The notes under the pieces: generated by a model
What the model was told of the DNA's origin: nothing
Database searches by the model: none
What the model saw: the letters and a program-made list of their open reading frames with translations, nothing else
Origin: Deltaproteobacteria bacterium
Lineage (GTDB): Bacteria > UBA10199 > SPLOWO2-01-44-7
Reading direction: 5' to 3'
NCBI GenBank assembly: GCA_030688705.1
Contig: JAUYJH010000121.1
Location: 1-42,728 of the forward strand
Length of the DNA: 42,728 bases
Program-made: the position numbers and the translations under genes
Shown: piece by piece, positions 10,625 through 14,581 of the stretch
Numbering within the stretch: position 1 is the stretch's first letter
Layout: each line of letters begins with the position of its first letter

Positions 10625-13600
10625 CTACTTATTGGTCGGATGAATCCAGTCAGCCATGGCAAAACCGATTTTTCTCCCAAGCCATTCGGTGCCGATATAA
10701 TTTCCAACACCCGAATAATGAATGCCCGCGCCGAGAGCAAAACCACTTCCCACCACAACCGCGGTAGTTGCCGCGGCCGATGAGGCTACGGTAGCTGCCG
10801 CAGCGGTGCCGGCACTTTTGGCAAAAGCCGCCGCGCCCGCCGCCATTACCGCCACCGCCGGTCCAGTCTGCCGGGCTGTTTGTGCGGCCATTTGTAATCC
10901 GATCCGCGCATTTTGCGCCTGTGTTGAAACAACTGATCTGGCCGTACGGACTAAATGGACACTGCCGTCATTGATAACCTGCCAGCCGAGCTTATGAGCC
11001 CCTGCGATAGTGGGCTTCGCCATTCCGGCGTATTTTGCCGTGTGTGCCCCCAATGCCGTGACGGCTGCTTCGGTTCCGGCAAAGCCGCCCAAAGTTCCTA
11101 TCGCTTCACTCGTGGCGCTTCCATGTTTCAGGGCTTTTACACCGGTTGCATCCAAACCTGCTTCGGTCACTTTTTTGGAGACCTCAAAAACAGGCGTTAT
11201 GGCCGCCAAGTGAAGTGGGGTATAGGGGTTGACTAATATAAAACCTCCCAATATGCCCAGCCCAATCCGGTCGTGCTCTTCTTCGGTGAGGAGCCCCACA
11301 TCTTTATGTGCCGCCACGCCGAGCGCCGCAAAGGCCCCCGCCATTTTGGCAAAACCGGGAATATCACTCCAAAATTTTCCAAGAAGATTCGGCGCCCGCA
11401 TGGACAAAGGCAAACCGGCAGGATTTCGGTTCACCATGTCATTCCGGCCCGCCACGTCATTCCGGAGTGCCACGTCATTCCGGCGAAAGCCGGAATCCAG
11501 TATTTTCGCTCCGGTTCTCCGTTCGGAGCCCGCCCTGAGCGAAGTCGAAGGGTTCTCCGTTCTCTGTGTCTCTGTTCTCCGTACCTCTGTTCTCCATTCT
11601 CCGCCCACTCTATGCCGTACATCCGCCCCTCTAACGGCAACTCTTCTCCCCGCCGTCCGTATCCTGCGGCCTTGGACTTTTCCGGCGGGGCCGGATGTTT
11701 TTCCTCCGCCATTTGTCCGTTGGGCTCTTTCTCTTTGACCCTCGGCCAAAGCGGTTTGAATCTCATGCGGATCTGAAAATACCAATTCAGGATTTTTGCC
11801 AAATTCAATAAGTTGTGCTGCAATTCTGGCCCGTTCGGCCTCGATGGAAGGGTGTTCCATGATAAAATCGAGAGCGGCTCCGGCCGATTCTCTTGAAATC
11901 AACAGACCGCCCACTTTTGCCTTTTCTTGTGTCAATGCGGCGATATCCTCTGCGCCAATGTGGGTCTGATCTTTAAATTGCGCCTCTCTGGCAAGCTCAT
12001 CGAGAAGGTTTAATGCTCCGGAATTGGGACTTTGTTCAAGAAACTTTGTTGCTGCGATAATTCTTGCAAACAAATTGTGTTCCGCACCCTGTATTCCATA
12101 TTCTTTGAATAAATCCGGCGCCATCTCTTTTAAAATCTGCGTCAAAGACTCAACACTGAAGTCTCCAATGTTGATAATTTTGCCCATTCGCCTCTCAATA
12201 TCGGGCACCGCTTCCCTGACTTTTTCGATTTCCGAAGTCGTTCCAACTAATACAAAGCCTGGGTTCTCTACTTCCAGCGTGGGGAGGACCATTCGGAAGG
12301 CGTTGGTTGATGTGGAACCGGGGCCGAATCCCGATGTTTCAGCGATTGATAACCAGTTTTGAAGTTCCTGGGCATGATAAATTCCCGGCTTTCCAAGCCA
12401 GGTTTTGTTGAGGGCATCCGCCACCTTTGCCGCCATTCCCTTGAACAAACCCCCTTTAGCGGCCATGCCTGTTGCATCGATATTGCCCGCACTCTTATTT
12501 CCGGCAAATTTTGCCCTTTTAAGTTTGATGCGATCATTCAAGAAGAGCCACTGAATATATTTCGCAATTAAATCTTTTCCGCTTCCGGAACGCCCGGCAA
12601 GAATAATATGGGGATGTTTTGAGTCCATGGCAGCTTGCACTTTTTTGACAATCTCCTCCACCTCGGGAACGACAACGATTCCTGGTTTTTCAACTTTCAG
12701 CTTTTCGGTTACATCTTTAATAAAGTCATCGACATTCATCTCCGTTTTGCCTTCCGTCGATTTTTTATGCAGTTGATACATCATCACGCCCACCCCTGCC
12801 CCAACAATTCCGGCCAGTGTTGCCGGTATTTGGCCCAATAATATTTTCCAGATCATCGTCTTTTGGCCATCTTTTAACCCTTTATCAGTGCGTGCTCCTT
12901 CAAACGCCTTTTGCAGGGCGGCGACAATTTGTTTGGCCCTTTCCGGCGTAAATTTGTCCGATTTTAAAATGGCTTTGGTTAATTTGCCGTCGACATCTTC
13001 AACAGACAATTTGTTGGTTACGGAGAGGTATTTTTTGTTATCCCCGTTTGGATCGATACACCCGTCGCCTTTGGGGATCTCCAACAGAGTCATTAGTTCA
13101 AGGATTTCCTCGTTTGTTAATTCGACGCCAAGCAGTGTGTTGTAAAATGCTCCCTTATTATCCTGACATTGCTTGTCCAAAATTTTGTGGCCCCCCTTTT
13201 TGTAAACCAATAAAGGGGTGCCTCCATCCACGCCCTTTGACGCGAATCGGCACATTTCATAAATAGAATCCGGGCTTTTGGGAACCAAGAGTTTTGTGTC
13301 ATCGTCGACTTCCAAATTATAGCCGTAATTCATGGCCTGAATGCGGCGTATCTCTTCATCGGTTTTCGGATTTCTTAATGTCCCAAGATCACCCGGTTCT
13401 GTTCTCTTCCCGCTCTCTAGTTCTTTTTTCTCCCTTTCCAAACTTTTTTCCACATCCCCCGGTTTGTCGTGCTGTGCCGACAGCCGGTTCTTTTGAGCCT
13501 TTGATGAAAGTGTGTTAAAATCATCGAGATTTTTTTTGATGCGTGTGTCCGTAACGGGGAAGACACGTACGCGATGCAGATCAGCATTTGGATTAAACCA

Positions 13601-13750
13601 ATCTTTGCCCTCTTTGTCTCCTTCAGGAACGCAGATCGGAATTTCATCTAGGGTTTGGTATGTGATGGCGGCGGCGTCGACATCTTCCCCCATGGGAAGA
13701 AATCCGTCTTGAAAACGCGCCCCTAATTTTTTTACGTTGTCATCGCCCAT
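10625..13750 (-). CDS. Large membrane-tethered protein with a degenerate Clp/Hsp100 NBD1-like AAA+ module and an Ala/Gly-rich hydrophobic C-terminus
   Basis: The ORF is open from TTG 13765. ATG 13750 is preceded by GGAG at 9 nt. Using numbering from 13765, the layout is:
- aa 1-300: unknown
- aa 304-331: TM helix
- aa ~362-600: collinear by eye with ClpB NBD1 ([30 protein letters not shown]...[33 protein letters not shown]), but with Walker A GKD and Walker B IYHAQE
- aa ~700-780: Arg-rich segment encoded by repeats
- aa ~800-1046: Ala/Gly-rich hydrophobic region. Confidence 0.7.
   Translation of the reverse strand: [1041 protein letters not shown]
11438..11500. repeat. Family C element with a triplicated half-site, in frame in the large gene
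   Basis: GTCATTCCGG occurs at 11438, 11456 and 11474, an exact 18-nt period. The last copy completes the hairpin GTCATTCCGGCGAAAGCCGGAATCCAG. It is translated on the minus strand as [20 protein letters not shown]. Confidence 0.8.
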
Positions 13751-13768
13751 AAATAAAATCTCCAATTA

Positions 13769-14581
13769 TTACCCACCAGCCCTGCCGCCTTTAGCTTTGG
13801 GCGGGGGCGGTTTTCCTGTTGCCTTATCTATTTCTCTTTTTCTTCTTTGGTGATCTGCTTCTGCCTCATTTTTTGCCTTTAGCCTGTCTTCTTCTTGTTC
13901 GTCTTGTGACTTTTTCACTTTTTCATCAAAATCTGTGTCACGTTTCTCGGCATCTGCCCTCATTTTATCTTCTGCCTTTTTAGCTTGTTCTTGGATCTCT
14001 TGTTCACGTGCTTCCAGTTTTTTTTGTTCTGCTTGTGCGCGTGATTCCAAGTCTTTGCGGGCCTCTTGTGTTTCTGCATCTCCCCCTGCTGGAGAGGGAG
14101 GTGTATTTTTGGCTGTTTGCGCCGATTCTGTCCCCGATGTCGGCTGTCCTTGTCCATTTTGTTGTTTGGATGGATCGTTGAAAGGCCAAAATGAAATCGG
14201 CGGCCAAGAAGACCAATTGCGATAGTGCATCAAAAAGGGATCGGTCATTAACATTGTGTCGCCCCAGCCTAGCAGTGTGGCGCCGGCCGCGAATTGATCA
14301 TGCTGATAAAAATCGTCGCCCCAAAGATCAAGAGGGGACTGGGGGGACCATGGACTAAAAGCGCCACCGAACAGACCACTTCCGTAAAAACCGCGCCCAA
14401 CTCCGGGTGCGGCGGAGGGAAATAACGGAGCCTCATTAAAAGGATGAAATACGCCTTGCCCACCGAACACCTGCGGAGGAGGGACCATCATGGGGAAGCC
14501 AAAGCCCCCCATCCCCCCCAATCCAAATGGAGAGAAACCGTTTGTGGTGGCATCAACAATAGGACTCAAAAGAAAGGACAT
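13769..14581 (-). CDS. Low-complexity protein: aromatic/Gly/Pro-rich N-half, charged helical C-half
   Basis: 270 aa with no signal peptide. The N-half contains FGLGGMGGFGFPMMVPPPQVFGG, LFGGAFSPWSPQ and NWSSWPPISFWPF. The C-half contains ETQEARKDLESRAQAEQKKLEAREQEIQEQAKKAEDKMRADAEKRD...KPPPPKAKGGRAGG. It lies 18 nt upstream of, and co-oriented with, the large gene. Confidence 0.6.
   Translation of the reverse strand: MSFLLSPIVDATTNGFSPFGLGGMGGFGFPMMVPPPQVFGGQGVFHPFNEAPLFPSAAPGVGRGFYGSGLFGGAFSPWSPQSPLDLWGDDFYQHDQFAAGATLLGWGDTMLMTDPFLMHYRNWSSWPPISFWPFNDPSKQQNGQGQPTSGTESAQTAKNTPPSPAGGDAETQEARKDLESRAQAEQKKLEAREQEIQEQAKKAEDKMRADAEKRDTDFDEKVKKSQDEQEEDRLKAKNEAEADHQRRKREIDKATGKPPPPKAKGGRAGG

Follow-up and report, generated by a model that had tools for sequence, protein, structure and literature searches.

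The stretch of DNA analysed here (contig JAUYJH010000121.1, 42,728 nt; hereafter the window) is a public NCBI contig from the metagenome-assembled genome (MAG) of an uncultured groundwater bacterium, labelled 'Deltaproteobacteria bacterium'. An initial annotation, made from the sequence alone, had singled out two adjacent minus-strand genes, one for a small aromatic- and Gly-rich protein (protein 1) and one for a large AAA+ protein (protein 2), as a candidate for an undescribed system, and both were followed up. Protein 2 consists, in order, of an N-domain, a single transmembrane (TM) helix, an AAA module, a repeat-encoded linker and an Ala/Gly-rich C-domain, and its AAA module very probably descends from the first nucleotide-binding domain (NBD1) of Hsp100/Clp proteins. 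The two genes and their features are as follows (positions in the window; ORF, open reading frame; HMM, hidden Markov model; REP, repetitive extragenic palindromic).

13769-14581, minus strand: protein 1 gene, from the ORF call; 270 aa; exact NCBI match (MDP2600326.1, Q8P84_06295)
14234-14287, minus strand: core motif of the partner family, AGATLLGWGDTMLMTDPF, consensus AG..LLGWG[DN]....DPF, from a MAFFT alignment of five partners and an HMM search
13820-14068, minus strand: K/E/D/Q/A/R-rich helical segment of protein 1, weak heptad signal
13751-13768, minus strand: intergenic spacer of 18 nt with a GGAG ribosome-binding site
10625-13750, minus strand: protein 2 gene, 1041 aa from the ATG, stop codon (10625-10627) included
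12866-13750, minus strand: N-domain (~295 aa) with four conserved Cys (C45, C172, C200, C236)
12776-12853, minus strand: single TM helix, residues 305-330, Kyte-Doolittle hydropathy 1.63, followed by HKKSTEGK
12662-12733, minus strand: degenerate Hsp100 pre-NBD1 signature, from alignment with ClpB and hhalign
12086-12661, minus strand: Clp-NBD1-type AAA core, from Pfam PF00004, ClpA/ClpB alignment, motif census and hhalign
12572-12595, minus strand: Walker A, GRSGSGKD (residues 391-398)
12437-12454, minus strand: pore loop, GGLFKG
12365-12385, minus strand: Walker B, GIYHAQE (residues 461-467)
12233-12250, minus strand: sensor-1, LVGTTS
12182-12202, minus strand: Arg finger, DIERRMG
11699-12085, minus strand: lid (compare ClpB PDKAIDLIDEAAS) and family-specific helical region, from ClpB alignment and hhalign
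11381-11698, minus strand: low-complexity linker, ~75 aa longer than that of the relative L002 through an in-frame insertion of repeat DNA
11549-11603, strand not applicable: 7-nt (GTTCTCC) x7 tandem array, from a repeat scan
11434-11503, strand not applicable: REP-like palindrome GTCATTCCGGCGAAAGCCGGAATC (11474-11497) and an 18-nt x2.8 tandem array, from a repeat scan
10628-11380, minus strand: C-domain (251 aa), with ..AAH.., an A/R-rich long helix and an Ala/Gly tail, HYSGVG..IGTEWLG

The ORF of protein 2 opens at a TTG at 13765, and its likely start is the ATG at 13750. The junction between the two genes reads GGG TAA TAATTGGAGATTTTATTT ATG, with GGAG located 10 nt 5' of this ATG, so that coordinates and junction sequence both agree with the earlier description of two same-strand genes separated by 18 nt, with GGAG ahead of the second start codon. 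Scans for promoters and terminators gave nothing above shuffled controls, and an Rfam search of 10-15 kb gave no match. A fragment 100 % identical to the first 322 aa of protein 2 was also found on a 1-kb contig (L008) of another NCBI MAG, GCA_034372585.1.

Relatives of protein 2 were identified by searching 1.84 billion cluster representatives exhaustively with HMMER (E < 1e-3). This search resulted in 23 proteins, 7 of them with E < 1e-30. Word-indexed searches found almost nothing, the first returning one partial relative with the query itself absent, and no relatives were found in JGI metagenome contigs. The family members originate from groundwater or Rifle-type MAGs and from Logan assemblies. 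Most are 900-1330 aa long and are composed of an N-domain of ~250-350 aa, a hydrophobic helix, the AAA module, a helical region, a P/G-rich linker and a C-domain of ~240 aa. The two genes had initially been called an orphan operon, a description at odds with the 23 representatives and with the conserved synteny described below.

When searched as a single sequence against Pfam, NCBIfam, PADLOC, PHROGs and PDB, protein 2 gave marginal P-loop/AAA matches only. Its score with the Pfam AAA model (PF00004, model positions 1-130 of 131) was 22.7 bits against a gathering threshold of 21.2; L002 scored 26.8 bits, and 10 of 22 family members matched this model, with a best E-value of 2e-9. As a control for circularity, a profile was built from only the 11 members with degenerate motifs and compared with reference proteins using hhalign. 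This profile matched ClpA NBD1 (residues 194-442; 98.7 %, E 4e-16) and ClpB NBD1 (residues 161-408; 98.2 %, E 4e-14) over ~240 columns beginning at the pre-NBD1 signature; the values for FtsH (E 1e-9), ClpX (E 4e-7), HslU (E 4e-6) and Lon (E 1e-5) were weaker, and the family's own canonical subgroup was matched at 99 % (E 4e-18). The collinearity with ClpB NBD1 that had first been noticed by eye is thus statistically real. A profile of the whole family retrieved ~90 genuine ClpA/B/C proteins with E-values of 1e-54 to 1e-41 (ClpB at 1e-54), ahead of other AAA+ proteins, with FtsH- and SpoVK-type AAA proteins reaching only 1e-8 to 1e-4. Near-canonical ClpB NBD1 signatures are present in several members, such as P0017, P0031 (AGTKYRGEFE) and P0011 (ILFIDELHT), and AAA_lid_9 (PF17871) was found in four members, the lid of the window copy being visible only via hhalign. 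P0017 and P0031, the most ClpB-like members, also carry helical inserts of ~70 aa, located behind the Walker A helix and ahead of Walker B, which is not the position of the ClpB M-domain.

The remaining Clp domains were searched for in the same proteins. Pfam gave no match for Clp_N (PF02861) either in the window protein or among 22 family members, and none for a second NBD (AAA_2, PF07724), ClpB_D2-small (PF10431) or the M41 protease domain (PF01434); the hhalign match to NBD2 is a secondary one of P-loop length only. No M-domain was found either, as the ClpB alignment stops at about residue 408 and nothing of the window protein aligns further. Pfam and the ClpB alignment therefore agree with the initial annotation that a second NBD, a Clp N-domain and an M-domain are lacking. 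On the strength of these comparisons, we are highly confident that the AAA module derives from ClpA/ClpB NBD1 and that the conserved architecture is genuine. Protein 2 is a Clp-NBD1 derivative that lies outside the ClpA/B/C family proper.

The linker that joins the AAA module to the C-domain is Arg-rich (residues ~690-795) and is encoded by the REP-like palindrome and the two tandem arrays listed above, the 18-nt x2.8 and the 7-nt x7 array, whose location bears out the previous proposal of a repeat-encoded linker. The sole other copy of GTCATTCCGGCGAAAGCCGGAATC in the window is intergenic (24948-24971), with a chance expectation of 0. The presence of REP and tandem repeats inside an ORF, in a region where several frames are open, would be expected if protein 2 were an artefact, either a chimera of two genes read across a repeat-filled spacer or a decaying pseudogene. 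Protein 2 is also missing from a 15-billion-protein collection in which both of its neighbours (MDP2600324.1 and MDP2600326.1) are present, which again would suit an artefact. This explanation is extremely improbable in view of the relatives. A scan of genome collections identified the 6.9-kb contig L002 from a related groundwater MAG, on which L002:2299-5226 encodes a 975-aa relative of the same architecture that is collinear with protein 2 through residue 1041. The two proteins are 60 % identical over residues 180-689 and 33 % identical in the C-domain, without a frameshift. The linker of the L002 protein is Pro/Gly-rich and repeat-free, the ~75 extra residues of the window protein are precisely the repeat-encoded ones, and the native motifs on either side of the insertion are kept in the window protein. 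In more than 10 further relatives, a single ORF encodes both the AAA module and the C-domain, with a P/G-rich linker in between. Because L002 is collinear without the repeat and these relatives hold both parts in one protein, the ORF is regarded as genuine and a chimeric ORF is ruled out; the possibility raised earlier, that the large ORF might be split at the repeat block, was not borne out in L002 or the others. Judged from this comparison, a REP-type element is absorbed in frame into a linker predicted to be disordered and is tolerated there.

The active-site motifs were then compared across 16 AAA modules of the family, using E. coli ClpB numbering. The Walker A Lys (K212) and the Walker B Glu (E279) are present in all 16 modules, as is an aromatic residue at the pore-loop position Y251 (F441 in the window protein), and every module retains at least one Arg at the Arg finger (RR in the window protein). 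Sensor-1 is Ser, Thr or Asn in 14 of the 16. The T213 column is occupied by Asp in six modules, including that of the window, by Ser in six, by Thr in three and by Gly in one, and the Walker B Asp (D278) is kept in 5/16, with Gln in the window protein. Five modules are fully canonical (GK[ST] and DE). The window copy, with GKD and YHAQE, is non-canonical, having Asp for the Walker A Thr and Gln for the Walker B Asp, with the Lys, catalytic Glu, sensor-1 Ser and the two Arg-finger residues unchanged; the GKD and IYHAQE readings of the initial annotation are confirmed by residues 391-398 and 461-467. The canonical and degenerate versions occur at the same locus in sister genomes.

The Walker A Thr and Walker B Asp positions ligate Mg2+, and their change would cripple hydrolysis in most AAA+ proteins. 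Protein 2 might accordingly be read as a non-hydrolysing scaffold, in which the GKD/QE module serves for nucleotide binding or sensing, or responds to an activating partner, and organises other proteins at the membrane without any threading. Such a scaffold would account for the substitution of both Mg2+-ligating residues in the window copy, for the loss of the Walker B Asp from 11 of the 16 modules and for a Pfam AAA score barely over threshold. We consider it possible but unlikely. Even members with degenerate motifs show little or no variation in the catalytic Glu, Walker A Lys, Arg finger and, most tellingly, the pore-loop aromatic, and canonical and degenerate versions share a locus in sister genomes. 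The strict conservation of these residues, among them the aromatic that grips substrate, argues for a functional threading ring and not a pure scaffold. The view of the module as a 'pseudo' or merely nucleotide-sensing AAA+ domain is not upheld by this census, in which 5/16 modules are fully canonical. Most likely, to judge from its residues, the window copy still binds ATP and its turnover is slow or regulated. The Walker B Asp is missing from all six GKD proteins, an association that is statistically weak (~0.06, uncorrected for phylogeny), and the Asp of GKD may be hypothesised to be a relocated Mg2+-binding carboxylate.

The N-domain had been described as containing no recognised motif, and this agrees with Pfam, NCBIfam and PDB-sequence searches, which gave no relative, the family profile reaching a best PDB E-value of 0.09. 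The first two of its conserved Cys residues are jointly absent in exactly three members (L002, P0019 and P0020), and the third and fourth are jointly absent in exactly four others (P0014, P0024, P0026 and P0031). Because the Cys are lost strictly in pairs, we infer two disulfides; their loss as two independent pairs argues against a single four-Cys metal site, and a Zn(Cys)4 site was rejected on this ground. The window protein has four Cys in the N-domain and none in the other 720 residues, the corresponding family-wide numbers being 2-6 versus mostly 0-1. One TM helix after the N-domain had been proposed earlier, and hydropathy agrees with this assignment, the position of the helix being kept across 16 family members with Kyte-Doolittle values of up to 2.4. 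Past the helix, the window protein contains 62 Lys and Arg residues, compared to 47 before it, and fewer acidic residues. Because of the Cys pairs and their distribution, the Lys/Arg bias and the requirement that the canonical members must see ATP, the N-domain is predicted to lie outside, where it would be periplasmic with two disulfides, and the AAA module and helical C-domain are predicted to be cytoplasmic.

The C-domain is a conserved all-alpha module of ~240 aa family-wide that is also found by itself or in other settings (P0023, P0024, P0025, P0027 and P0028). It has no Pfam, NCBIfam or PDB-sequence relative. An AlphaFold2 model from a 19-sequence alignment placed ~140 of its residues in a five-helix bundle at a predicted local distance difference test score (pLDDT) of 85-95, with the Ala/Gly tail modelled without confidence. 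Foldseek searches with this model gave no match with E < 0.7 or a TM-score > 0.25 (best E 2.1 in PDB and 0.74 in BFVD), and the weak rows for holin, FliP and TolQ were rejected as noise. The family-mean hydropathy of the C-domain helices is 0.3-1.2 and the highest 19-residue window reaches 1.41; the usual threshold for TM helices is ~1.6 over such a window, and a C-domain built of TM helices was rejected on this ground. The C-terminus was thus correctly described as Ala/Gly-rich, and its hydrophobicity is only moderate. The proposal of a membrane-active C-terminus gives way to a conserved helical domain with hydropathy below the TM range, which is not clearly membrane-embedded and whose tail could at most be peripheral.

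For protein 1, composition counts agree with the initial description of a signal-less 270-aa protein with an aromatic/Gly/Pro-rich N-terminal half, a charged C-terminal half and a basic tail. Residues 1-135 are of low complexity and rich in Gly, Phe, Pro and Trp (G 16 %, F 13 %, P 13 %), residues 136-270 contain K 14 %, E 13 %, A 13 % and Q 10 %, and the basic C-terminal tail is PPPPKAKGGRAGG. A hydrophobic N-terminal segment was looked for and none was seen. The charged segment had been thought to form a heptad-like coiled coil, and this was not supported, with only 8 of 83 residues being L, I, V, M or F and hydrophobic residues occupying 7 of 24 a/d positions in the best register; from its composition, a single charged helix seems a better description of this half of the protein than a coiled coil.

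A homologue of protein 1 (243 aa, 30 % identity, E 7e-14) is encoded immediately upstream of the large gene in L002. A partner HMM was built from five clear partners (window, L002, L009, L011 and L012) and used to search all fetched loci, where it matched only beside family genes, in five loci, with E-values of 4e-42 to 3e-118. The partners share the N-terminus MSF(L)xP(I/V), an aromatic/Gly/Pro-rich half and the core motif, which is also present in a 258-aa protein of L016. The partners in L011 and L012 are co-oriented with the large gene at gaps of 4-8 nt, and a more distant version, divergent in sequence, is found in L016/17 and upstream of P0031. Overall, the partner adjoins the large gene in 6 of 11 loci, so that the proposed pairing with a low-complexity partner holds in these and fails in the other 5 of 11, where no partner is adjacent; co-occurrence is frequent, not obligatory.

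The genomic context of the large gene was examined next. The order in the window is RcpC, secretin, CpaF, TadB, TadC and a tetratricopeptide repeat (TPR) protein, followed by HigBA, a small ORF with an AbiEii-like nucleotidyltransferase (NTase), the large gene and the protein 1 gene (both on the minus strand), MNT/HEPN, an M20 dipeptidase, a membrane protein, tig, clpP, clpX and lon. The family gene is adjacent to the M20 gene in nine loci (window, L002, L007, L009, L010, L012, L013, L014 and L015), and tig-clpP(-clpX) follows M20 in every locus whose contig reaches that far. Which toxin-antitoxin (TA) modules occupy a given spot, if any do, varies between loci, suggesting that a core gene borders a hot spot of TA insertion here. 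A variable position and an association with mobile elements, as expected of a mobile island, were not found; only the flanking TA modules vary. The large gene thus looks like a positionally conserved, lineage-specific core gene and not part of a defence island.

The gene evolves rapidly at this fixed position. Large proteins are 24-46 % identical between genomes in which the M20 proteins are 52-63 %, the tig products 51-55 % and ClpX 77-82 % identical. The closest relatives differ from domain to domain. For residues 1-175 (N1), they are P0013 (81 %) and P0015 (47 %), with L002 undetectable; for the AAA module, the best relative is L002 (74 %) and P0015 is undetectable because it carries the canonical type; for the C-domain, it is P0011 (49 %, E 8e-69), compared to 33 % for L002. 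Domains thus appear mosaic between genomes, and the combination of module exchange and rapid divergence hints at diversifying selection. The family is rare, fast-evolving and lineage-specific.

Mosaic domains and divergence well beyond that of M20, tig and ClpX are features that a conflict, defence or contact-dependent system would display, with protein 2 as a diversifying effector or sensor in a TA-rich island under arms-race selection, and TA modules do lie on both sides in the window (HigBA and the AbiEii-like NTase pair, MNT/HEPN) and near several relatives. We regard this explanation as decidedly unlikely. The gene stands beside housekeeping genes in nine loci, with different TA modules each time; no toxin, nuclease or protease domain was detected, and none of the family was found in viral or plasmid-type contexts. 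Neither PADLOC nor PHROGs contains a matching family: in PADLOC-DB v2, the best matches of protein 2 were mad8 (E 0.0027) and SspF (E 0.013), both in the P-loop region only, and protein 1 had no match. The inference of a conflict or defence role that had been drawn from the TA neighbourhood is therefore not sustained by the constant M20-tig-clpP-clpX position, the variable TA modules and the PADLOC result. An eLife 2020 paper on conflict systems does not cover the family. Literature searches on membrane-anchored Clp or NBD1-only proteins, on a GKD Walker A and on Hsp100 proteins with a TM helix found nothing relevant. Together with the negative searches of Pfam, NCBIfam, PADLOC, PHROGs, PDB and Foldseek, this is in line with the original statement that no system of this architecture has been described.

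Taken together, the data suggest that protein 2 would be a lineage-specific, single-pass inner-membrane AAA+ protein with a motor from Hsp100/Clp NBD1. It would assemble as a ring beneath the membrane, like other Clp and classical AAA modules, and its aromatic pore loop may grip, thread or remodel a polypeptide at the membrane surface, with the signal-less, aromatic/Gly-rich protein 1 as a putative dedicated client or adaptor. On the sequence evidence, we give about an even chance to this picture, in which a Clp-NBD1-type ring anchored in the membrane acts on a client by threading or remodelling and protein 1 serves as client or adaptor. Several points weigh against it. Both Mg2+-coordinating positions are changed in the window copy. 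Five loci (L007, L010, L013, L014 and L015) have the M20 gene directly beside the large gene without an adjacent partner, and the partner in L009 is oriented divergently to the large gene, so that the pair need not be obligate. An N-out topology is unusual for an N-domain of ~300 aa that lacks a signal peptide. Finally, the AlphaFold2 model of the AAA module, made from a two-sequence alignment, had a pLDDT of 46 and was discarded as unusable.

The fusion of a Clp-type threading module to a TM helix and a large domain assigned to the outside would also be compatible with an Hsp100-derived export or insertion motor, in which the ring would act with its six TM helices and the outside N-domain to carry the partner, or further clients, into the inner membrane or through it. 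The partner is signal-less, resembles extracellular structural proteins in composition and has a conserved N-terminus (MSFLxPI), and a Tad secretion/pilus locus adjoins in three loci. We consider a motor of this kind very unlikely, as no channel-forming component was found, each subunit has a single TM helix and a C-domain that is not clearly membrane-embedded, the partner is absent from the adjacent position in five loci, Tad adjacency is not universal, and the reading draws purely on analogy. The analogy is with Bcs1 or with the Plasmodium translocon of exported proteins (PTEX), whose HSP101-EXP2 pair likewise couples a Clp/Hsp100 threading motor to a membrane. HSP101 is a complete two-ring Hsp100 protein that docks on a separate pore protein, EXP2, whereas protein 2 has a single NBD1 with a TM helix in the same chain, and a pore protein was not found. 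A joint reading, which we hold to be speculative and quite doubtful, would make protein 2 a bacterial membrane machine of a kind not recognised before, a single-ring NBD1 motor of the inner membrane that exports or inserts signal-less aromatic/Gly-rich clients, as a bacterial counterpart of PTEX or Bcs1; the Walker A Asp of the window's sub-lineage would replace the lost Walker B Asp at Mg2+, and an external partner, for instance prey, host or phage, would be the selective force behind the shuffling of N- and C-domains.

The preferred reading, a remodelling or threading ring anchored in the membrane, can be compared with known systems. The NBD1 of ClpA, ClpB and ClpC is the best profile match and is similar over ~240 columns that include the pre-NBD1 signature, Walker A Lys, aromatic pore loop, Walker B Glu, sensor-1, RR and the lid motif. 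Protein 2 differs from these proteins in having a TM helix and a ~295-aa N-domain in place of Clp_N and a novel C-domain in place of NBD2, in lacking the M-domain and D2-small, and in its GKD Walker A and QE Walker B. With FtsH, Msp1/ATAD1 and Bcs1 it shares an N-terminal membrane anchor followed by one classical-clade AAA module, and plausibly also the working principle of a ring at the membrane surface that pulls polypeptides; FtsH is the second-best reference. Unlike FtsH, protein 2 lacks M41, has an AAA module closer to Clp NBD1 than to that of FtsH and carries a large N-domain of the disulfide type and the novel C-domain. Torsins are Clp NBD2-like proteins of the HCLR clade that reside in the ER lumen behind a signal sequence and have no arginine finger, which is supplied by LAP1 or LULL1. 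They resemble protein 2 as membrane-associated, Clp-related AAA+ proteins with a non-canonical nucleotide site, and had been cited as a precedent. This likeness is superficial, as protein 2 matches NBD1 and not NBD2, keeps RR and has no N-terminal signal peptide. The overall picture of a membrane-tethered, Clp-derived AAA+ protein with a partner thus stands in its architecture, NBD1 origin and non-canonical site, and falls with regard to a dead ATPase, a membrane-active C-terminus and a role in defence.

Hsp100/Clp modules are among the best-studied protein-remodelling motors, and an NBD1-only motor fused to a TM helix, an outside domain and a new helical domain would widen the known uses of the Hsp100 motor. 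The natural series at one locus, from GK[ST]/DE through GK[ST]/xE to GKD/xE with the pore loop, Glu and Arg finger fixed, offers a natural test of which Mg2+ ligands an AAA+ site can spare or relocate; all of the evidence derives from uncultured groundwater MAGs. The locus also illustrates that a defence function cannot safely be read from TA-rich surroundings alone, and it provides a further example of REP-type repeats taken in frame into coding linkers.

Several additional observations were made in the window and in related loci. A complete Tad/Flp pilus-type locus (388-9128; RcpC, secretin, CpaF, TadB, TadC and a TPR lipoprotein) is convergent with the large gene. The Tad locus lies on the opposite side of the large gene in three loci (window, L007 and L009) and this arrangement is absent in other relatives; a functional link to the Tad pilus was rejected, with adjacency in only three loci. 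Between the secretin and CpaF genes, at 2797-3156, lies a gene of the 23S-rRNA-intervening-sequence protein family (PF05635, E 5e-15), which is flanked by AT-rich arrays and looks like an insertion into the Tad operon. TA-like pairs are present at 9150-10591, 14778-15840 and 23850-24922, comprising HigB/HigA, the small ORF with an AbiEii/DUF2204-like NTase, MNT with a HEPN-like protein, and another NTase pair. In L012, positions 11328-14300 hold an RtcB RNA ligase gene with an intein (PF14890 between two RtcB halves) and an adjoining archease gene.

At least three families of short REP-like palindromes are spread across the window (GTCATTGCGAGG...CGAAGCAATC, GTCATCCTGA...GAAGGATCC and GTCATTCCGGCGRAAGCCGGAATC), at 5108-5215, 6498-6548, 7192-7223, 8827-8863, 21177-21208, 24948-24971, 30311-30364, 33698-33738, 38843-38879 and 39896-39956. 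The copy at 8827-8863 lies in frame within the TPR-like gene (7992-9128), where it adds ...CCHPEPQGGEGSRM... relative to the L009 homologue, and is a second instance of a repeat taken into coding sequence. Intergenic heptamer tandem arrays form two sets, one of GGACAAT/GTCCTTG (1251-1392 and 26651-26763) and one of the AT-rich AATTTAG/TTTAGAA type (3162-3259, 28299-28448 and 32580-32728), and within each set the arrays are inverted copies of each other located tens of kb apart.

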